This document shows positions 3,826-36,631 of a stretch of DNA of 42,956 nt, piece by piece. The DNA lies in the IMG/VR virus record IMGVR_UViG_2721755643_000001; one strand, 5' to 3'. Below the pieces are notes generated by a model. That model saw only the letters and a program-made list of their open reading frames with translations, was not told where the DNA came from and made no database searches. This stretch comes from a virus. Taxonomy: Duplodnaviria > Heunggongvirae > Uroviricota > Caudoviricetes. A program made the translations under genes and the position numbers. Each line of letters begins with the position of its first letter. The stretch's first letter is position 1.

Positions 3826-4014
3826 TCACGAGGACTGAAGTTTCTCGCAATTAAAATTTATCAGTTTTACTTTCTGCTCTCTGGAAACGCCTGCTTCTTT
3901 TTCCCCTGAGAGCATTTTTTCGCATTCTGATTTCGTTAGTTTTGTCTTTGAGTATCTTGTCCAGCTGGCAGGAGATCCACCTTCCTTTTCAATAGTGGCT
4001 GTAATTTTATACAT
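3826..4014 (-). CDS. Hypothetical small phage protein
   Basis: Track ORF 3826..4038; internal start at MYKITAT has a strong GGAGGTG Shine-Dalgarno 5 nt upstream. Confidence 0.5.
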   Translation of the reverse strand: MYKITATIEKEGGSPASWTRYSKTKLTKSECEKMLSGEKEAGVSREQKVKLINFNCEKLQSS

Positions 4015-5467: not shown

Positions 5468-7382
5468 TGGTCACTCCAAAATTTTCAAGCTTGTTGGCAA
5501 TCATCATTGCGATGTCAGGGATTGCAGGCGCATAGGCTATGCACGCAGGATTCGCACATAAACCGTAAACCGCCGCAATCAACACCTGTTTTTTCCAGTT
5601 GAGTTCATCTTCGCCAGTTTCATTATTGCTATCATTATGCTGATCGCTGCCAGCGTTCTCCGGTAACAAATCATCAGCTTTTTCCGTTTTCTTCGGCTCT
5701 TCTTCCTGTGCTTCATCTGGTTTTTTTTCGTCAAAAGTTTCCTGATAAGTTGCGTCTCCCATCACCGCGCCACAGTCAGGGCAGTTATCCTCGCCAGTCT
5801 GATTGCAGGGTGTTCCCTCCTCCGGTTCGCTGTTCTGGTGCTGTTTATCTTCAGTCTGTCGCACTTCATTTTCCGTTTTTTTGACTTCATTTGAGGAGAT
5901 ATGATGACCGGGAATCCATTTCGGATCATTCGGGTCGCTAATCCCTTCAACAAATTCTCCGCGAGAGGCAGCCAGTAATTTGTCTGCATCGACAGGATTT
6001 TTGGGCGGAATGTTTTTCCGGGCTTCATGGAGTTCTGCCCGCAGTTCCTGATATTTCGCATCAACAGCATTTACCTGTGACTGAGCATCCAGCGGCTGCG
6101 TGTCCTGATGATGTTCAGTTGCATCCGGTTCCACTGTTTCAGCCGTTGCCTGTTCATCTGCCATTGCGCAAGATGGTTGCGGTTTTTCTTCATCATCCTG
6201 TTTTCCTTCTTCTGTTACACGCTGCGGCATCGGGGCAGAGGAGCGACCGCAGGCAATATCCACGATTTCCGGATCAGGGTTGGCATGATCGGTTTCAGTC
6301 AGTACCTTGTTCAGATATTCAGTGACGTGCGCGGGGATGACCTCGATCCCAATTGGTGCTTCTTTTACGGACGCAACCACGATGGCGCGGGAATAATCCA
6401 GCCCGCCAGGCATGGTGATGAATTTGTCGCGGAAAACAGAAAAGGGCGGTTTATTTTCAGCGATAATTTCCTCAATGCGTTTAGCGTGTGCCGGATGAAG
6501 GTTATAGATGTCCAGATCCATTGAACGGGCCAGTACGCCAGTGGCTACGTCGCGCGCCAGTGACGTCAGATCGTGTACGAAACCTTCGCCGCGATCGGTG
6601 AGGTTTCCGCCGCCAGCATTAGCACCGGAAGCCGTGCGAGTGATGTGTGAAACACGATTACCCTTCATCCACTCTTTTGTCAGCAGTCCTCGATCGGTGT
6701 AGTCAGCGTTCAGGTATGCTTCGAAAAAAGCAGTTATCAGTCCCAGGCTTGAATTACCAGGATTAGGGAAAACTTTGTCAGTGTCACGAACCAGTTTGTG
6801 GAGATCGCGAATTTCCAGCGGGTCGAGCAGGCTGGTTTTGTGGGAAACAGCCAGGGCAGTAACAGCCGGTAGTTCTTCAGCCCGAGCAATGTGTAATGCC
6901 TGGAGTCCGTCGCGTGAAACGTGCGTTACCGGTTTTTCGCTGCCGTGTTGAGCAAGCCAGCGAATGGGCAGTTCCTGACCGGAAACTGGCAGGAGCATGT
7001 TCTCCTCAATTTCTGTCATGTCTTCGCCGTTGACGTTGGTATTGTCAGTGCTGGCTGGTTTGTCCTGAACAGAGGGAGAAGATGCGATAAATACCATTGT
7101 GATGCCATCTTCCCCGCCTTTTTCGTAACGGTTGCAGAATTCCGTATCAAACACGCCTTCTGGCGGGAGGTCATCAACAACGGGCAAATTGACGTGAACA
7201 GGTTTTTTAAAGTCATCTTCATCGTAGCCTGCATCGTCAATCGCAACAGCACCACGGGAGATGGCAATGGATAATTTTTTCGCTTCAGCCCAGTAAAAAC
7301 CGCCTTTAATACCGAGGCGTTTTCTTACTTTGTCATTTTTTGCTTCGTAATACAGTGGGTAAACTTGTTTATCGGTGCTCAT
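5442..7382 (-). CDS. Large hypothetical early protein with acidic low-complexity C-terminal third
   Basis: 646-aa ORF; C-terminal region rich in D/E/Q/K/T/P (e.g. [33 protein letters not shown]); no motif I can assign. Confidence 0.8.
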
Positions 7383-8623: not shown

Positions 8624-8789
8624 GATGGCAGCCTCCGCGATGAATTTGATTAACTCACCACCGGAGGTAGCAATCTCATGGGTGGTGAGACGTACAGGGT
8701 TGCTACAACCGGTCATCACGGAACCCGGCCAGTCTTGCGACTGCCCCGCACGCCCCACCATAATTTGAATGTGGCTGTGCATTACGCAT

Positions 8790-8817
8790 AAAAAAACCGC
8801 CTGAGCGCGGTTATGCG
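8790..8817 (-). terminator. Rho-independent terminator-like hairpin upstream of the Rha gene
   Basis: Minus strand reads AACCGC-GCTCAG-GCGGTT followed by a T7 run; flanked by a CGCATA/TATGCG outer repeat. Confidence 0.55.
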
Positions 8818-8939
8818 CCGTGAATGACTTCGGGGTAGCAATCCCGGCACCCGTTTTATGAGGTGCAGGTGCACTATAATTCCACCCGTTCTGGTTTTCA
8901 ATAGCTACATTCAACATTTTCTCTTTCCTTTCATCACCG

Positions 8940-9790: not shown

Positions 9791-10093
9791 ATGAAGATCA
9801 TCTCAGTTAAAACACTCAGGGATTTTTGGGCGGAGAATCCCGATGCAGAACAACCGCTAAGGGCATGGGTGGATGAGGCAGCAAAAGCTGACTGGAAAAG
9901 CCCGGCAGACATTAAGGCACAATACCGAACGGCTAGTATATTGAAAAGCCGGCGTGTGGTATTCAACATAAAAGGTAATCATTACCGTTTAATTGTTGCA
10001 ATTGCGTATCAGCGAGGATGGGTATTTGTTAAATTCATCGGAAGCCACAAGGAATACGATGCCATTGATGCTGATACCATCGAACTGGAGTAA
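9791..10093 (+). CDS. higB: Type II toxin, HigB/RelE-like mRNA interferase
   Basis: About 100 aa, MKIISVKTLRDFW...YRLIVAIAYQRGWVFVKFIGSHKEYD resembles HigB; toxin-first order, 2-nt gap to an HTH antitoxin. Confidence 0.75.
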   Translation: MKIISVKTLRDFWAENPDAEQPLRAWVDEAAKADWKSPADIKAQYRTASILKSRRVVFNIKGNHYRLIVAIAYQRGWVFVKFIGSHKEYDAIDADTIELE

Positions 10094-10095
10094 GC

Positions 10096-10455
10096 ATGAA
10101 CATCAAACCTATTCGTACAGAGCAAGATTATGAAGCCGCGTTGCGTGCTGTTGAGCCTATGTTCGACAATGAACCGGAAATTAACACGCCTGAGGGGGAT
10201 TTCTTTGAGGTGATGTGTTTGCTAATAGAGGAATATGAAAAAAAACATTATCCCATTGAGCCACCATCCCCAATTGAAGCTATAAGATTTCGCATGGAAC
10301 AGCAGGGGCTGACCGTGAAAGATTTGGAACCCGCAATTGGGAAAAAAAATCGGGTTTACGAGGTGTTGAATGGCACCAGAAGCCTTACGTTACCAATGAT
10401 TCGCCGTCTTCATAATCAATTTGGTATCCCCTTGGAAAGCTTGGTGGGATTATAA
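10096..10455 (+). CDS. higA: Type II antitoxin, HigA-like (XRE-type HTH)
   Basis: 119 aa immediately downstream of the toxin; C-terminal HTH-like segment GLTVKDLEPAIGKKNRVYEVLNG. Confidence 0.75.
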   Translation: MNIKPIRTEQDYEAALRAVEPMFDNEPEINTPEGDFFEVMCLLIEEYEKKHYPIEPPSPIEAIRFRMEQQGLTVKDLEPAIGKKNRVYEVLNGTRSLTLPMIRRLHNQFGIPLESLVGL

Positions 10456-12144: not shown

Positions 12145-12446
12145 GGTTCTCGCCGATTACTCCTGGTTCTGCTGGCTGGCGCTGTGATTGTATTTCCGTC
12201 AGGGGTTTACTTTGGTCTAAAGGCAGTATGCAGACGTGATTATGCCCGAAGACGTTATACAGGGAAAGCACCGGTTCTTGGTGTTCTTTCAGTCCTGGTA
12301 ATCCCGAAGAAAGTGAAATGTCGCAGATGGCAGATCTGGGAGCAGCGTCAATGGTTCCGTGATATGAACCTTAGTCACGGTATTGATATTGCGTACCAGG
12401 ATACCCGGAACTGGAAAAAACTGGTAGCGGAGCGCTGGTATTAATT

Positions 12447-13975: not shown

Positions 13976-14488
13976 ATGGAGACCGTTTTTGACGCACTGA
14001 AAGCAATGGGAAAAGCCTCTTCACAGGAAGTTGCAGCACGCCTGGGCATGACCCGGGATGAAGCAATCAACGAGCTGTGGAAACTGAAGCGTCGGGGTGA
14101 GGCAGACAACAAAGGCCCGATGTGGTGGCTGACATCCGGCGATGAGGAAAAACAGGCCGGGTATCGTGAAACCCCCGTTGTGGATTTAATCCCACAGAGA
14201 GGGACTGAGAGTGAAAAAACAGCCAGACAGGAAGCGTCCGGAACAGAAAACACGGGTCAGCATGCAGATGTGACAGAAGTTGTTCAGCCAATCCCTGCGT
14301 TTACTGAAAAACAGCAGGATTATGTGATTCTGCCATCACTGCATGCGGCAAACCGTGAGCTGCGCCGGGCAAAAGGTCAGGTCCAGAAGTGGGAGCGTAT
14401 CTGCGCCGCGCTACGGGAGCTGAATAAACACCGGGACGTTGTCCGGCAGATTGTCGACTCTTCCCGCCGTGTTGCATCGGAAAAGTGA
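13976..14488 (+). CDS. Hypothetical protein
   Basis: Start at internal ATG of track ORF 13910..14488 with a GGGAGA Shine-Dalgarno; 170 aa. Confidence 0.55.
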   Translation: METVFDALKAMGKASSQEVAARLGMTRDEAINELWKLKRRGEADNKGPMWWLTSGDEEKQAGYRETPVVDLIPQRGTESEKTARQEASGTENTGQHADVTEVVQPIPAFTEKQQDYVILPSLHAANRELRRAKGQVQKWERICAALRELNKHRDVVRQIVDSSRRVASEK

Positions 14489-16120: not shown

Positions 16121-16632
16121 GCGAGATTAATTATCAGGAAGGGCATGAAACGGTAGGGCAGGCAAAACCAGTTGCATGGCGATATCGCTATGTGAAAAAA
16201 AGCGTTACGGACTTTCAGGAGAAGATGTGGGTTGGTGACTGGAAATATGTACCGACAAAAGAGGATTGCAACGACAGGCCGAGCTATGAGATTCAGGCCT
16301 TATTCACTGCCCCGCCAGTCCCGGTGACATCAGAAGGACTGGTTAAAGCCGTGCGCTTTTATGAACAGGTAAAGCGTGAAAATCCGCCAGCTGAAACAGG
16401 AGCATGGAAAGATGCTGTTGATTGGGTACTCAAAGAGGCCTGCTGTGCTGCCATTCTGGGTAAAGCTGACAATCCACTAGCATCCAGTAATCAGGTTAGC
16501 GAATTAACAATGTGGGTTAAACGACTGGTCAGTCAACTGAAAAAAGCTCAGCCGGACTGCAAATTACCGGAGAAGGCGATGGATTACCTGAAACGAAATG
16601 GACTGATAAGCGTGGAGGATGTTTTACGATGA
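16117..16632 (+). CDS. Hypothetical protein
   Basis: 171-aa ORF; ATG overlaps the preceding stop. Confidence 0.6.
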   Translation: MSEINYQEGHETVGQAKPVAWRYRYVKKSVTDFQEKMWVGDWKYVPTKEDCNDRPSYEIQALFTAPPVPVTSEGLVKAVRFYEQVKRENPPAETGAWKDAVDWVLKEACCAAILGKADNPLASSNQVSELTMWVKRLVSQLKKAQPDCKLPEKAMDYLKRNGLISVEDVLR

Positions 16633-16917
16633 CCTGGTCTGAAGCATTCACAACGGTAGGAATCGCACTGGCGGTGGTGGTGTATTCGATTTGCCGCTGG
16701 GGATAAAAACGGTTTGCGGGAAAAGGAGAGTTAAGTAGAATTGCAGCGGGTGCTTGAGGCTATCTGTCTCAGGCATGAACACCAAAAGGCAGATAGAGAA
16801 AAGCCCCAGTTAACATTACGCGTCCGGCAAGACGCTTAACATTAATCTGAGGCTCAATCTATGAACGGCAAATCTAGGTTAGCCTCTTACGTGCCGAAAG
16901 GCAAGGAGAAGCAGGCT

Positions 16918-17073
16918 ATGAAGCAGCAAAAGGCGATGTTAGTCGCCCTGATCGTCATCTGTATTACCGTCATTGTGACGGCACTGGTAACGAGGAAAGA
17001 CCTCTGCGAGGTACGAATCCGAACCGGCCAGACGGAGGTCGCTGTCTTCACAGCTTACGAACCTGAGGAGTAA
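16918..17073 (+). CDS. Hok/Gef-family type I toxin
   Basis: 51 aa; MKQQKAMLVALIVICITVIVTALVTRKDLCEVRIRTGQTEVAVFTAYE parallels Hok (TM helix, conserved RK.LCE.R and EVA.F.AYE); AAGGAGA Shine-Dalgarno. Confidence 0.75.
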   Translation: MKQQKAMLVALIVICITVIVTALVTRKDLCEVRIRTGQTEVAVFTAYEPEE

Positions 17074-17080
17074 GAGACCA

Positions 17081-17102
17081 GGCGAGGGAGAAATCCCTCG
17101 CC
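17081..17102 (+). other. Perfect 9-bp stem with GAAA tetraloop in the hok 3' UTR
   Basis: GGCGAGGGA-GAAA-TCCCTCGCC, 8 nt after the hok stop; resembles the fold-back elements of hok mRNAs. Confidence 0.6.
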
Positions 17103-17141
17103 ACCTCTGATGAGTCAGGCATCCTCAACGCACCCGCACTT

Positions 17142-17168
17142 AACCCGCTTCGGCGGGTTTTGTTTTTT
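17142..17168 (+). terminator. Rho-independent terminator
   Basis: AACCCGC-TTCG-GCGGGTT followed by TTTGTTTTTT. Confidence 0.75.
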
Positions 17169-17247
17169 CATGGCATTCTGGTTTACAATTCGCACGCCAG
17201 CCTGAACAACTGGCACCTGCTGCACTGCGCCATCGAGAGATTGAGAA

Positions 17248-17847
17248 ATGGCGCATATACAACTGGTCAAACAAACCTCTTCCGGATTACTTCTCCCGGC
17301 GACGCCGGAGAGTTGCGATTTTCTGCATCAAATCAAAACAGGTGAGTGGATACACGCAGACTTTAAGCGTGTGCGTAACTACGCATTCCACAAGCGTTTT
17401 TTCAGACTCCTGCAACTGGGATTCGATTACTGGACTCCGATCGGTGGGGCGATCACGCCCCGAGAACGAGAACTGGTATCAGGCTTCGTTGAGTACCTGT
17501 GCGAATCAGTAGGTCGGGAACATACGCCAGCTCTGAGCGAAGCCGCAGAGCAATATCTGAATACAGTTGCAACACGCAGAACCCGGGATACGGCATTGCT
17601 AAAGTCGTTTGAGGCTTTCCGCGAGTGGGTAACCATTCAGGCCGGATTTTACACCGAGCATATTTATCCAGACGGTAGCCGCGGGCGTCGGGCGAAGTCC
17701 ATTGCTTTTGCGAATATGGACGAAACCGAGTTTCAGCAGGTTTATAAATCTGTACTGAATGTGCTGTGGAACTGGATCCTATTCCGTAAATTCTCTTCTC
17801 CGGAGGAAGTCGAAAATGTGGCTGCGCAGCTGCTGGAGTTTGCGTGA
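17248..17847 (+). CDS. Nin-region protein, YbcN-like (DUF1367, tentative)
   Basis: 199-aa ORF placed before a YbcO-like gene and Q, as in DLP12; family from memory. Confidence 0.55.
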   Translation: MAHIQLVKQTSSGLLLPATPESCDFLHQIKTGEWIHADFKRVRNYAFHKRFFRLLQLGFDYWTPIGGAITPRERELVSGFVEYLCESVGREHTPALSEAAEQYLNTVATRRTRDTALLKSFEAFREWVTIQAGFYTEHIYPDGSRGRRAKSIAFANMDETEFQQVYKSVLNVLWNWILFRKFSSPEEVENVAAQLLEFA

Positions 17848-18883: not shown

Positions 18884-18960
18884 GGCCCTTTAGCTCAGTT
18901 GGTCAGAGCGAGCGACTCATAATCGCCAGGTCGCTGGTTCAAGTCCAGCAAGGGCCACCA
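18884..18960 (+). tRNA. tRNA with CAT anticodon (Ile2-like, ileX/ileZ type)
   Basis: Cloverleaf with 7-bp acceptor GGCCCTT/AAGGGCC, anticodon loop CTCATAA, T-arm GCTGG-TTCAAGT-CCAGC, encoded CCA; close to my recollection of E. coli ileX. Confidence 0.8.
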
Positions 18961-18961
18961 A

Positions 18962-19038
18962 CCACCACTAGCTCATCCGGATAGAGCATCAACCTTCTAA
19001 GTTGACGGTGCGAGGTTCGAGTCCTCGGTGGTGGGCCA
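18962..19038 (+). tRNA. tRNA-Arg (anticodon TCT)
   Basis: Acceptor CCACCAC/GTGGTGG, D-arm GCTC...GAGC, anticodon stem TCAAC/GTTGA with loop CTTCTAA, T-arm CGAGG-TTCGAGT-CCTCG, encoded CCA. Confidence 0.85.
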
Positions 19039-19040
19039 GC

Positions 19041-19116
<76 letters not shown>

Positions 19117-19119
19117 TAT

Positions 19120-19191
<72 letters not shown>

Positions 19192-33695: not shown

Positions 33696-33919
33696 ATATC
33701 CCCCCGCGTTATCTCGACCCCGACAGACCGTTCGGGGTGGTGGATTACGTTAATGTTCCCCGTACCATTGCGACCGTTATCTCCTCCGGTAAGGCTTCAA
33801 AAGCTGAACTGGATTCTGTCCTTGGTGTGCAGGACTTATGGGATCTGCTGGAAATAATTCATGTGGATGCCCATAACGAACAGGTGATACAGGAGAACAG
33901 AAATGGCGCAGGTACTTGA
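33291..33919 (+). CDS. Tail assembly chaperone, -1 frameshift-extended form (frame 0 to 33677, then -1 frame to 33919)
   Basis: Heptamer T-TTT-TTC at 33671-33677; the -1 frame is open from there to 33919 (includes track ORF 33737..33919) and ends overlapping the tape measure start. Confidence 0.6.
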
Positions 33920-35924
33920 TGAGCTTGTTCTGTCCCTCGGGATTGATGACAGGGACTTTACTGCCGGGGAACAGGCAGTACATGCTGCCCTTAACCGGCT
34001 CACGACGGTGATGGAAGGTGTCGCTGACACATTCAGTCAGGGACAGAAGAAAACCAGTGAATCACTGGAAAAAACCGGAAAAGATGCTGATAAAACGGCC
34101 CGTCGAATGGAAGATGCCGGGAAACGGGCGTCCCGTTTTTTTTCAGGGATCCGTAGCGAGATTCTGGCTCTTGCGGGTGTCAGTCTGACGCTGGGGGGGC
34201 TGAAGAACCTGGTAACAGGTTTTGCCCGTGATCTGAACCGTCTGTCCGTGGAATCTGATGCTTTTGGCATGAAGGCCAGAAATCTGGACGGATGGTTACG
34301 GGCTGCGCGGGCAAATAATGTTGATGAAGGGGAAATGTCTGGGGCATTTTCCCGGCTTGCAAATGCAAAAGCGGCCTTCAGAGCCGGAAGGTCCTTTGAT
34401 CCTGTGTTACAGGATTTGTTTCAGGTTGCAGCCAGGGCGGGCATTAGTGTTGATTTAAATACTGACAGCACTGAAGCCATCATGCGCAAGCTGGCGGTTA
34501 TTTTTCCGCGACTGACAAAGTCCGAACAAACTGCCTACGGCAACGCGCTGGGCTTCAGTTATGCCGGACAGCAGTTTCTTGGCTCCGGTCATGCGCTGAA
34601 AGATGTGGACGAATTTACTTCCCGTTCGCAGGTTACGCCGGGGCGTACAGCGCTGGCCCGTAAGCTACGAAAAGAGCTTGTTGAGCTCGATCAGACCTGG
34701 TCCGGCATCGGGATGACGATTAGCACCACGTTGATGCCGTACGCGCTGAAGCTCAGCCACTGGCTGGAGACACTCGGTGACTGGATGCAGCAACATCCGG
34801 AGGAAGTGAACAGGTTTATCACCACATTTCTGAATGACGTTGAGTCAGTGGCCTCCCTGGCGAATAAGGCTGCCGGAGAACTGGGGGGCTGGCAGAATGT
34901 CATTATTACGCTGATCGGGCTGAAAGTGGCGTCATGGGTGCGGGGGCTGACAAAAGCCCTCAGTGGCCCCGGAGGCCTTCTTTTTGCGATAACGGCGCTT
35001 TACCCGGTTGTTGACGGATTACTGACATCCATTGTTGGCAGGGAAAATAAGGACTGGCTGGATTCACATGGTTTTTTCTGGGCTTCAGACGGGACTTTCT
35101 TTTTCAATAAGAAAGAGATGGAGACGTATCAGACAAAACTGGATGCCGGAGAAAAGCCTGGCAACATCACCCGGGCACAATCACCCACAGTATGGCAGCA
35201 GGGCATGCTGGATACTCAGGCTTCTCAGGCAACCGGGAGGGAAGCAGCCTTCGGTGAATCCTGGCTACAGGGTATGCGTGCGACGCAGGAAAAACTCGGT
35301 AATGCCATGCAAAACCGCCAGCGACCGACGAAGACCGGGGAAGCCCTGTTAGGCTGGCTGCAACCGAAACTGTCTCAACTGGAGGAAAAATATAACCTGC
35401 CGCCCGGACTGCTGCGCAGCGTTGCGATCACCGAATCCCGTGGTAATCAGTTTGCCGTCTCACCTGCTGGTGCGATGGGACTGTTTCAGTTCATGCCGAA
35501 GACGGCCAGTGAATTTGGTCTGAGGGGGAACGATGCCTTTGATCCCGAAAAAGCCGCTGATGCCGCCGCGAGAAAACTTGGTGGCCTGATACGTTTTTTT
35601 CATGGCGATCTGGCTAAGGCTCTGGCGGCATATAACTGGGGAGAGGGAAATGTTCAGCGTAAGGGACTGGCTGCTGCTCCGGAGGAGACCCGCAACTATA
35701 TTCCGCGGGTGCTGGCGAACCTGCCTTATCCGGGTGCGGCAATGGCCATACGGTCGCGCCATCCTGCGCCTGTATCGCAGTCCACCGTAACGGAAACCAC
35801 GCATATCGGGACACTGAATGTCACCACAACGTCGGACAATGTGAAGGGTATTACCGATGACGCACGTCGGCGTATCACGAATTCGGCGCTTGTGTCGGTT
35901 TATTCCAGCGGGGTAACAGGATGA
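33903..35924 (+). CDS. Tail tape measure protein with C-terminal lytic transglycosylase (SLT) domain
   Basis: 673 aa, helical Ala-rich body; C-terminal ITESRGNQFAVSPAGAMGLFQFMP...AYNWGEGN matches the SLT catalytic motif. Confidence 0.8.
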   Translation: MAQVLDELVLSLGIDDRDFTAGEQAVHAALNRLTTVMEGVADTFSQGQKKTSESLEKTGKDADKTARRMEDAGKRASRFFSGIRSEILALAGVSLTLGGLKNLVTGFARDLNRLSVESDAFGMKARNLDGWLRAARANNVDEGEMSGAFSRLANAKAAFRAGRSFDPVLQDLFQVAARAGISVDLNTDSTEAIMRKLAVIFPRLTKSEQTAYGNALGFSYAGQQFLGSGHALKDVDEFTSRSQVTPGRTALARKLRKELVELDQTWSGIGMTISTTLMPYALKLSHWLETLGDWMQQHPEEVNRFITTFLNDVESVASLANKAAGELGGWQNVIITLIGLKVASWVRGLTKALSGPGGLLFAITALYPVVDGLLTSIVGRENKDWLDSHGFFWASDGTFFFNKKEMETYQTKLDAGEKPGNITRAQSPTVWQQGMLDTQASQATGREAAFGESWLQGMRATQEKLGNAMQNRQRPTKTGEALLGWLQPKLSQLEEKYNLPPGLLRSVAITESRGNQFAVSPAGAMGLFQFMPKTASEFGLRGNDAFDPEKAADAAARKLGGLIRFFHGDLAKALAAYNWGEGNVQRKGLAAAPEETRNYIPRVLANLPYPGAAMAIRSRHPAPVSQSTVTETTHIGTLNVTTTSDNVKGITDDARRRITNSALVSVYSSGVTG

Positions 35925-36631
35925 GTTTTTCTTTCGATAATATTTCCCTGAATAACTTTTCGCTCAGTGAAAGTAACGTACTGAGTGCAGTTCGTGGCGG
36001 CGGTGTCCTGGGACTCATTAACAGTGTACTGGCACCGTCATTCGGTATTTATTACGCACGGAATGATCCGGCAGGTGCCCATCAGAAGGGTGGCAAACCT
36101 TTCTCCCCGGATTCTTTTGTTGTCGTTGAGGTGGGCGCGGAGGCTTCTGTTTCCACCGTCCCCGTGGAGCAGGGGGCTTATACCACCTTTAATAAAATCC
36201 AGAGATCGCCGGAACTGCATGTGACTTTCACTGTAGAGGGGTGGACGGCCTTTTCCGGATCCGTCCCGAACCTGACAAATTTTTCCACCACCTCGCGGAC
36301 GAATGTGCTGGAAACGCTTGAAAGGATGCGTACCACGGCAGGACTCTACGATATTGAGACGCCGGACAAGACATGGACATCCTGCGACCTTGTGAAATAT
36401 GACTACCGAATGCGAAGTAATAATGGTCCGACCTTACTGACGGTTACTGCGGTATTTCAGACCGTAATGAATACAGGAGAGGTGTCAGTGGGAAGTACGG
36501 ATAAGTCGTCTCCCACGGACAACGATAAAGCAAAAGGGGCCGCATCGGTTAAAACGCAGTCAGTTACGGCGTCGGTGACACAACCGTCAGACGCTGACAG
36601 ACGAAGCGCCACGAACAGGGGGATCACCTGA
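35921..36631 (+). CDS. Putative baseplate / tail protein
   Basis: 236-aa ORF after the tape measure. Confidence 0.5.

Follow-up and report, generated by a model that had tools for sequence, protein, structure and literature searches.

Positions 16700-17170 of a 42,956-nt viral DNA (Caudoviricetes; this whole stretch is referred to as the window) raised the question of whether a short Hok-like open reading frame (ORF) belongs to a complete type I toxin–antitoxin locus and, if it does, what such a locus does for the element that carries it. The original prediction named a hok/sok-family locus with fold-back control, and this was borne out by the Pfam HOK_GEF match, the Rfam RF01794 match, the homology with phage 933W, the predicted folds, and covariation. 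The features that it listed were all recovered, at or within a few bases of their predicted positions. From the sequence identity, the RNA elements, the predicted alternative folds, and the conservation with covariation, we consider it very probable that 16713-17167 is a complete hok/mok/sok type I toxin–antitoxin cassette of the prophage hokD/hokW kind, operating by the classical mechanism. As an ordinary representative of the well-known hok/sok system, apparently intact, the cassette is already known rather than new.

Toxin gene, leader frame, and known relatives

The 51-aa Hok-like ORF, for which no start had been given, begins at ATG 16918. The coding part of the locus comprised the following features.

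16918-17073, plus strand: hok toxin gene, 51 aa, coordinates including the stop codon (Pfam HOK_GEF; Shine-Dalgarno sequence AGGAG at 16904-16908)
16861-17073, plus strand: mok-type leader frame of 70 aa, read in phase with hok down to a common stop codon (ORF list; mokW of 933W is annotated alike)
16849-16852, plus strand: mok Shine-Dalgarno sequence GAGG, read from the sequence, 8 nt before ATG 16861

The 51-aa ORF matched the whole Pfam profile HOK_GEF (PF01848) with an E value of 5.8e-24 and a score of 83.9 bits (cut-off of 22). Among the NCBIfam models, the Hok subfamily (48.6 vs. 73) and HokA (39.5 vs. 89) scored below their cut-offs, and no match to a HokD-specific model was reported from that library. 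WP_000813267.1, named HokD by PGAP, is a protein identical to the 51-aa Hok. The suggested covariance-model search for hok/sok RNA yielded the Rfam model RF01794 ('sok') at 16748-16923, with 112.4 bits against a gathering score of 59 (E value of 6.3e-25). This match lies on the plus strand and extends as far as the hok AUG; the model marks the hok leader, or Sok target region, and not the Sok transcript. Rfam was ruled out as a means of placing the antisense RNA, as its model hits the sense strand. Given the Pfam E value, the Rfam score, and the fold of the predicted transcript (z = -7.0, see below), the locus is not a chance resemblance, and nothing tested contradicts its membership in the hok/sok family.

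Of 65 loci collected from one-genome-per-species contigs, 43 full-length relatives were aligned together with the window (alignment A2, 44 sequences), representing about seven genera (Escherichia, Shigella, Kluyvera, Citrobacter, Pseudocitrobacter, Photorhabdus, and Erwinia, with two more isolates). The role of the in-frame ATG at 16861 had been left unclear in the original prediction. The 70-aa ORF that it opens, down to the hok stop, corresponds in position to mokW and is the mok leader frame. Its Shine-Dalgarno sequence GAGG was nearly invariant in the alignment. The upstream ATG was found at -57 relative to the hok start in 29 of the 44 sequences (in frame, 68-70 aa), at -58 in nine (in another frame, 55-69 aa), and at -56 in five (a 19-aa ORF stopping at the hok start). 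The position of the mok start thus appears conserved in most relatives, while its reading frame relative to hok does not, which fits the statement for plasmid R1 that the translation of mok matters and not its product (PMC9841398). By analogy, the translation of hok would be controlled via the mok leader frame through translational coupling.

As the mok and hok frames coincide in the window, in 933W, and in hokC-type loci, the main product could be conceived as a 70-aa, N-terminally extended Hok starting at ATG 16861 instead of a separately initiated 51-aa peptide. However, the frame of the upstream ATG differs among relatives (the sequences with -58 and -56), and so the extension is not conserved as a protein; a good AGGAG lies 9 nt before ATG 16918; and the R1 statement on the mok product also argues against it. 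We regard an extended main product as very improbable and take the 51-aa peptide as the toxin.

The host element is a lambda-like (lambdoid) prophage of E. coli, and the cassette lies in its early-right (nin-like) region, between replication-side genes and a group consisting of DUF1367, DUF1364, and DUF1133 genes, four tRNA genes, and lysis genes. The hok gene is co-oriented with the cro-to-lysis gene string and with the replication-side, DUF, and tRNA genes. A 481-nt region recurred with 100% identity in the E. coli RMDEC332 chromosome; the hokD CDS is all that PGAP annotates there. The region was matched in 4946 of 5426 complete E. coli genomes, at a median of 2 places per genome and at 12,237 places in this collection as a whole, and in 101 records of a phage collection, 933W among them; 'inactive' RelF toxin is the label of the homologue in some phage records.

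Among described systems, hokW-mokW-sokW of the Stx2 phage 933W (E. coli O157:H7) is the closest: the DNA identity is 92.6% across about 440 nt, which begin upstream of the promoter and take in the whole fbi element. The 933W record annotates mokW (an in-frame extension with the same stop), hokW, and a 71-nt sokW antisense RNA. The two loci share the in-frame mok and a small ORF immediately upstream, and their Sok promoters and Sok stems are identical. They differ in the Sok 5' tail and mok codons 2-5 (ATGAACGGCAAATC in the window and ATGCTGAACACATG in 933W), in C-terminal Hok residues, and at the 3' end, where a canonical terminator follows fbi in the window; 933W lacks it, and the similarity stops near 17145. 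Overall, Hok was 88% identical to HokW, differing at 6 of 51 positions, three of them conservatively (BLASTP positives). The locations also differ: the window locus lies between replication genes and Q-like genes, whereas the 933W locus adjoins attR at the opposite end of the map, lying just past attP and reading in the direction of the leftward int operon. For Sp5, an Stx2 prophage of E. coli O157:H7 whose locus is identical to that of 933W, HokW was toxic, sokW counteracted it, and both RNAs were detected on northern blots (PMC8621323). The 51-aa Hok, 88% identical to this protein, would by analogy be toxic and neutralized by its antisense RNA.

The small ORF shared with 933W is an unannotated, hydrophobic 25-aa ORF (16629-16706) that precedes the cassette and recurs in 83 phage records, with or without hok. 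It was considered as a part of the cassette because it travels with hok in 933W, and was ruled out, as it was found without hok in other phages and is absent from most hok relatives.

The closest named gene is hokD (relF) of the K-12 Qin prophage, whose identity to the window copy was 96.6% across 16904-17167, a segment that contains the 3' hairpin, fbi, and the terminator. The K-12 locus is cut off 14 nt before the ATG, directly after relBE, and is devoid of tac, ucb, mok, and most of sok with its promoter. The window copy has all the elements that K-12 hokD lost, and it is therefore the intact form of the truncated K-12 locus.

Plasmid-borne hok/sok (parB) of R1, the paradigm of the family, has the same elements and the same predicted folding switch: the tac/fbi, ucb/Shine-Dalgarno, tac/ucb, and Shine-Dalgarno/dcb pairings, the metastable hairpin, and the protective 3' stem-loop. 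This likeness is one of element set and predicted folding switch and not of sequence alignment; the sequence is distant, HokW being 44% identical to R1 Hok (PMC8621323). Chromosomal loci of the hokC (gef)/mokC/sokC type show the same architecture with an in-frame 69-aa mok (loci L021-L024 of our collection) at a DNA identity of about 75%. Their Sok-overlapped stem is 18-20 nt shorter, and the window has an extra GC-rich apical stem at approximately 16820-16835.

Control elements of the hok mRNA

The following elements were assigned to the hok transcript.

16713-16741, plus strand: putative hok mRNA promoter, with a weak -35-like TTTGCG/TTGCGG (16713-16719) and -10 TAGAAT (16736-16741), read from the sequence
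16748-17167, plus strand: predicted full-length hok transcript of 420 nt, beginning with the conserved GGGUGC and reaching the U-tract of the terminator (both ends predicted)
16748-16759, plus strand: tac element at the mRNA 5' end, pairing with fbi (full-length) or ucb (truncated) in predicted folds
16750-16776, plus strand: metastable 5' hairpin (16750-16760 with 16766-16776), present in the centroid of the truncated fold
16760-16796, plus strand: leader hairpin (CTATCTGTC / GCAGATAGAG), from an inverted repeat and the fold, 92% paired in 44 sequences
16801-16809, plus strand: ucb, an anti-Shine-Dalgarno box predicted to pair with the mok Shine-Dalgarno region 16847-16854 (full-length) or with tac (truncated)
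16881-16886, plus strand: dcb, the downstream complementary box, predicted to pair with the mok Shine-Dalgarno sequence in the truncated, Sok-accessible form
17081-17102, plus strand: 3' stem-loop, 9 bp with a GAAA loop (inverted repeat, conserved, GC-rich)
17123-17135, plus strand: fbi, the fold-back inhibition element, complementary to tac (inverted repeats and fold)
17142-17167, plus strand: intrinsic terminator of the hok transcript (terminator scan; 7-bp GC-rich stem)

The ends of the mRNA were predicted from conservation. In BLAST comparisons with distant relatives, 16748 (GGGTGC) was the exact left-hand boundary of the homology, and the right-hand boundary was in most cases 17135 (GCACCC), close to nt 388, where fbi ends. 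Distant relatives from several genera carry, 6 nt ahead of this conserved GGGTGC, a -10 of the TAnnAT type. The -35 of hok is weak, as the consensus scan did not call the promoter.

The complementary leader segments CTATCTGTC and GCAGATAGAG noted in the original prediction form a 10-bp hairpin (16760-16769 with 16787-16796). At the other end, the 9-bp GAAA hairpin was confirmed with fully complementary arms (17081-17089 and 17094-17102, 100%), and so was the strong terminator, in which a 7-bp stem (17142-17159) with a TTCG loop is followed by TTTTGTTTTTT. The 3' region is therefore structured as proposed, but it holds more than the hairpin and the terminator, since the pairing of fbi with the mRNA 5' end also falls inside it. 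This long-range pairing (16748-16759 with 17123-17135) was missed in the original prediction, as were the position of the antisense RNA and the non-conservation of the GAAA loop.

The 420-nt transcript had a predicted folding energy of -170.8 kcal/mol (z = -7.0 against shuffled sequences). In the full-length fold, tac and fbi formed 12 pairs, ucb (16802-16809) paired with 16847-16854, and the hok Shine-Dalgarno sequence was paired as well. With the 3' end removed, tac paired instead with ucb (16801-16807), and the mok Shine-Dalgarno sequence with dcb (16881-16886). A switch of this kind from a closed to an open form, and a metastable structure of the nascent mRNA, have been described for R1 hok (PMC9841398).

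Conservation was evaluated in the 44-sequence alignment by comparison with controls in which the pairing partners were slid. The full-length structure was 86.5% paired (40-46% in the slid controls), and 41 pairs changed on both sides (13-19 in the controls). The two-sided changes are the stronger evidence, because the structure was derived from one of the aligned sequences, which favors the percentage of paired positions. The tac/fbi helix was 91.4% paired, with compensatory changes at three pairs, including U4-A to C-G in eight sequences and G12-C to A-U in five. Position 4 of tac covaried with fbi and, in nine sequences, also with its partner in the metastable hairpin; it is the one tac position that is unpaired in tac/ucb. 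The metastable hairpin was 96.9% paired (31-49% in the slid controls), with three pairs changing on both sides. The tac/ucb helix was 98.7% paired; the columns of the tac/ucb and Shine-Dalgarno/dcb helices are invariant, and they thus give no covariation for or against these pairings. The target-loop helix was only 55-68% paired, in a part where the alignment is poor.

The stem of the 3' hairpin was 97.5% paired in the 44 sequences, with four pairs changed on both sides. The GAAA tetraloop was ruled out as a conserved motif, as the loop varies (GNRA in 28 of 44) and only the stem is conserved. The stem-loop at 17081-17102 is likely the protective end-hairpin of the processed mRNA, and the end point of 3' processing is placed there as a guess from structure. 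Mutations weakening the equivalent terminal stem in R1 destabilize or remove the truncated mRNA, probably via 3' exonucleases (PMC9841398).

The predicted Sok antisense RNA and its variable tail

An antisense RNA had been expected by the original prediction, but it could not be placed by eye. It was placed here by homology with sokW, together with its promoter.

16799-16869, minus strand: Sok-type antisense RNA, 71 nt, running from 16869 to 16799 (933W sokW annotation mapped via alignment A1)
16876-16904, minus strand: Sok promoter, with -35 TTGCCT (16904-16899), a 17-nt spacer, and -10 TAACCT (16881-16876)

The predicted Sok transcript covers the mok Shine-Dalgarno sequence and start codon, and its transcription would start with the G at 16869. 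The predicted fold (-29.9 kcal/mol, z -4.9) left 14 nt at the 5' end single-stranded as a tail, followed by one long hairpin and a U-tract, and such an arrangement, as modeled, is the Sok architecture.

Promoter prediction on the minus strand, as had been proposed, was unsuccessful: a generic sigma-70 scan of 16500-17400 on both strands returned no site, with the hok and Sok promoters both below the threshold. Both promoters were therefore placed by homology and conserved spacing. The Sok promoter stretch was identical to that of 933W, and among the 44 relatives, the spacer was always 17 nt and the -35 was TTGCCT or TTGACC. The 'promoter-less' mutant of Sp5 was made with primers YO-421/422, which replace exactly the equivalent of the -10 TAACCT, and sokW RNA of Sp5 was detected on northern blots, was antitoxic, and counteracted HokW from its own promoter (PMC8621323). 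Internal mismatches in the Sok stem kept the generic terminator scan from flagging the Sok terminator.

In the stem common to Sok and the hok leader, G-U pairs accounted for one of 532 paired cells of the alignment, compared with 13.8% in the other mRNA helices, a contrast whose nominal p-value is inflated by the non-independence of the cells. Where one strand has a G-U pair, the other has a C-A mismatch. For this reason, the avoidance of G-U pairs is an independent sign that both strands are folded RNAs.

A separate observation concerns a patch of about 20 nt (16855-16875), which constitutes the 5' recognition tail of Sok and its target. Among 68 unique close relatives (≥88% identical), the mean pairwise difference was 0.33 in the Sok 5' tail, 0.15 in the other leader loop, 0.036 elsewhere, and 0.028 at the four-fold degenerate sites of hok, so that the tail is approximately 12 times more variable than these sites. 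About eight main alleles of the patch were distinguished, and that of the window was present in 8 of 83 copies. Pairs of hok/sok copies within the same genome never had an identical patch (0 of 22). Close paralogues differed by 16-39% in the patch and by 2-10% in the rest, in Escherichia/Shigella as well as in Photorhabdus. A test for excess sharing or avoidance of tail alleles within genomes was underpowered with 22 pairs.

The differences in the patch between copies suggest selection for distinct Sok specificities, and relaxed constraint combined with recombination is an alternative explanation of the variability. We consider it a doubtful, though conceivable, proposition that the patch is under diversifying selection in discrete alleles, which could make each prophage copy answer only to its own Sok; a second and linked possibility is a cassette triggered by read-through from the early operon that collides with the Sok promoter (see below). 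We found no earlier description of this hypervariability in the literature, where older key papers were outside the scope, and this absence is weak.

Proposed mechanism and biological role

By analogy with R1 hok/sok and Sp5 hokW-sokW, we would expect the cassette to be transcribed, its mRNA to be processed from the 3' end, RNase III cleavage to take place, and Hok to be toxic; its biological role is likewise drawn from these homologues. The weak promoter would give rise to a stable hok mRNA of 420 nt. During transcription, tac would be held in the local 5' hairpin. In the finished RNA, tac would pair with fbi, ucb would mask the mok ribosome-binding site, and the hok ribosome-binding site would be paired, and for these reasons the finished mRNA would be neither translated nor bound by Sok. 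Slow trimming from the 3' end would remove the terminator and fbi and halt at the GC-rich hairpin 17081-17102. The tac element would then switch to ucb, and the mok ribosome-binding site would enter a hairpin with dcb, becoming both translatable and a target of Sok. The short-lived Sok, as long as it is made from the minus strand (16869 to 16799), would pair over the mok start, and the duplex would be destroyed. When Sok synthesis stops, mok would be translated, which would permit the translation of hok, and the 51-aa peptide would damage the inner membrane.

Chromosomal hok loci in laboratory strains are often inactive. The cassette of the window might likewise be a hok/sok cassette by descent but a functionally silent relic, similar to the chromosomal hok copies of laboratory E. 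coli. K-12 hokD keeps only the part from 16904 onward, tac is mutated in one relative (L009), and the label 'inactive' is attached to the homologue in phage records. Both promoters are weak by consensus, and the prophage bears recE and DUF1627 pseudogenes and an IS66-type insertion, owing to which it may no longer be inducible. Against a relic, none of the known control elements is damaged, nor is either reading frame; the Sok promoter and stem match those of the functional Sp5/933W copy exactly, and Hok differs from HokW at only six positions, half of them conservative. On balance, a silent relic is unlikely.

Regarding its main role, the cassette could aid the lytic cycle of the prophage itself: during induction, early antiterminated read-through would collide with the Sok promoter and bring about the collapse of Sok, and the membrane would be weakened by Hok ahead of the action of the holin and endolysin. 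In Sp5, sokW RNA vanished and HokW appeared after RecA-dependent induction, about 1 h before the endolysin, and deletion of the locus halved phage release, with the trigger left open by the authors (PMC8621323). The co-orientation of hok with the cro-to-lysis genes, with no predicted terminator upstream within 16500-16747, suggests that early antiterminated transcription reading head-on into the Sok promoter could be the trigger sought for Sp5. In 933W, the locus likewise has the sense of the leftward int operon and is downstream of it, just beyond attP. However, the step of read-through and interference is deduced from gene order only, the prophage is possibly defective, and the effect in Sp5 was modest, about two-fold. 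A main role in lysis can thus be proposed tentatively.

The main role could otherwise be addiction, by killing cells that lose the prophage, or defence, in which a lytic phage that shuts down transcription in the host would provoke abortive infection. 'Prophage maintenance' is the annotation in the 933W record, and R1 hok/sok is cited in PMC8621323 and PMC10305079 as stabilizing plasmids and excluding phage T4 in part. The locus is also near-ubiquitous and often multi-copy in E. coli, as given by the genome counts above. On the other hand, the deletion of the locus from Sp5 left the growth of the uninduced lysogen unchanged (PMC8621323). Addiction or defence as the main role is possible but rather doubtful.

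The cassette has little value as a discovery, having been annotated in 933W decades ago and validated in Sp5 in 2021, and being near-ubiquitous in E. coli. It is of use for annotation, since mok, Sok, and the RNA control elements, which PGAP omits in the identical genome by marking only the hokD CDS, can now be given base-exact coordinates. The window copy further shows what the truncated hokD of K-12 looked like when intact. If true, the read-through trigger would answer the question left open for hokW-sokW, and the hypervariable Sok tail could be relevant to the coexistence of many hok/sok copies in one cell without cross-protection.

Toxin–antitoxin and RNA genes elsewhere in the prophage

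The features found outside the hok/sok cassette were as follows.

3830-4008, + strand: RalA, the antitoxin sRNA of RalR (full-length match, 204 bits)
8678-8866, - strand: C4 antisense RNA (79 bits) adjoining isrK (64.8 bits), both RNA-family matches
9791-10455, + strand: HigB-family toxin and helix-turn-helix partner (annotation in the identical genome, the E. coli RMDEC332 chromosome)
16629-16706, + strand: unannotated hydrophobic 25-aa ORF (MTWSEAFTTVGIALAVVVYSICRWG)
18884-19190, + strand: four tandem tRNA genes (Ile, Arg, Thr, and Val by PGAP), lying between the Q-like and holin genes
33715-36330: IS66-family element among the tail genes
5610-7382 and 13976-14488: recE and a DUF1627 gene, annotated as pseudogenes

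The RalA match, for which the identical RefSeq genome has no annotation, adds a second type I toxin–antitoxin system to this hok/sok-bearing prophage, and the HigB-family pair is its third toxin–antitoxin pair. C4 and isrK both lie within the 5' portion of a coding sequence annotated by PGAP as a 'Rha family phage regulatory protein' (34040-34882 of L068, a record in the identical genome), and the start of this coding sequence may be over-extended. In Stx phages, the position of the tRNA cluster holds tRNAs and toxin genes. The 25-aa ORF begins at an ATG that shares bases with the stop codon of the gene before it. This ORF is retained in the Stx2 phage 933W with a 6-nt in-frame indel, despite unrelated genes upstream, and was found by tblastn in 83 phage records, part of them having no nearby hok. 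The IS66-family element and the annotated pseudogenes were noted in a prophage that may be defective.

Sok length and the control region in related loci

The Rfam search matched RF01794 ('sok antitoxin') at 16748-16923 on the + strand, which is the sense strand of the hok leader. As this match ends at the hok AUG, it points to the region targeted by Sok rather than to the antisense RNA itself. The stem shared with Sok has 18–20 nt extra at its tip (window ~16820-16835) in hokD/hokW-type loci, whereas hokC-type and Photorhabdus loci are without this extension. The extra apical stem is GC-rich (GCGUC...GACGC), and it accounts for a Sok of 71 nt instead of ~53 nt. K-12 hokD (1501-1765 of the E. 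coli DH1 record L153) has only window 16904-17167 in common with this locus. Its similarity begins 14 nt 5' of the ATG, immediately past relE, and thus the K-12 copy is without tac, ucb, mok, and sok.

Variability of the Sok recognition tail

Pairwise comparison identified one hypervariable patch in the cassette.

16855-16875, both strands: Sok 5' tail, its target, and mok codons 2-5

Between any two of 68 close relatives, the patch differed by 0.29-0.33 on average, compared with 0.028 at the four-fold sites of hok. The patch occurs as approximately eight main alleles, and in none of the 22 pairs of hok/sok copies that occur together in a genome was the allele shared. The variable patch may mark Sok specificity groups.
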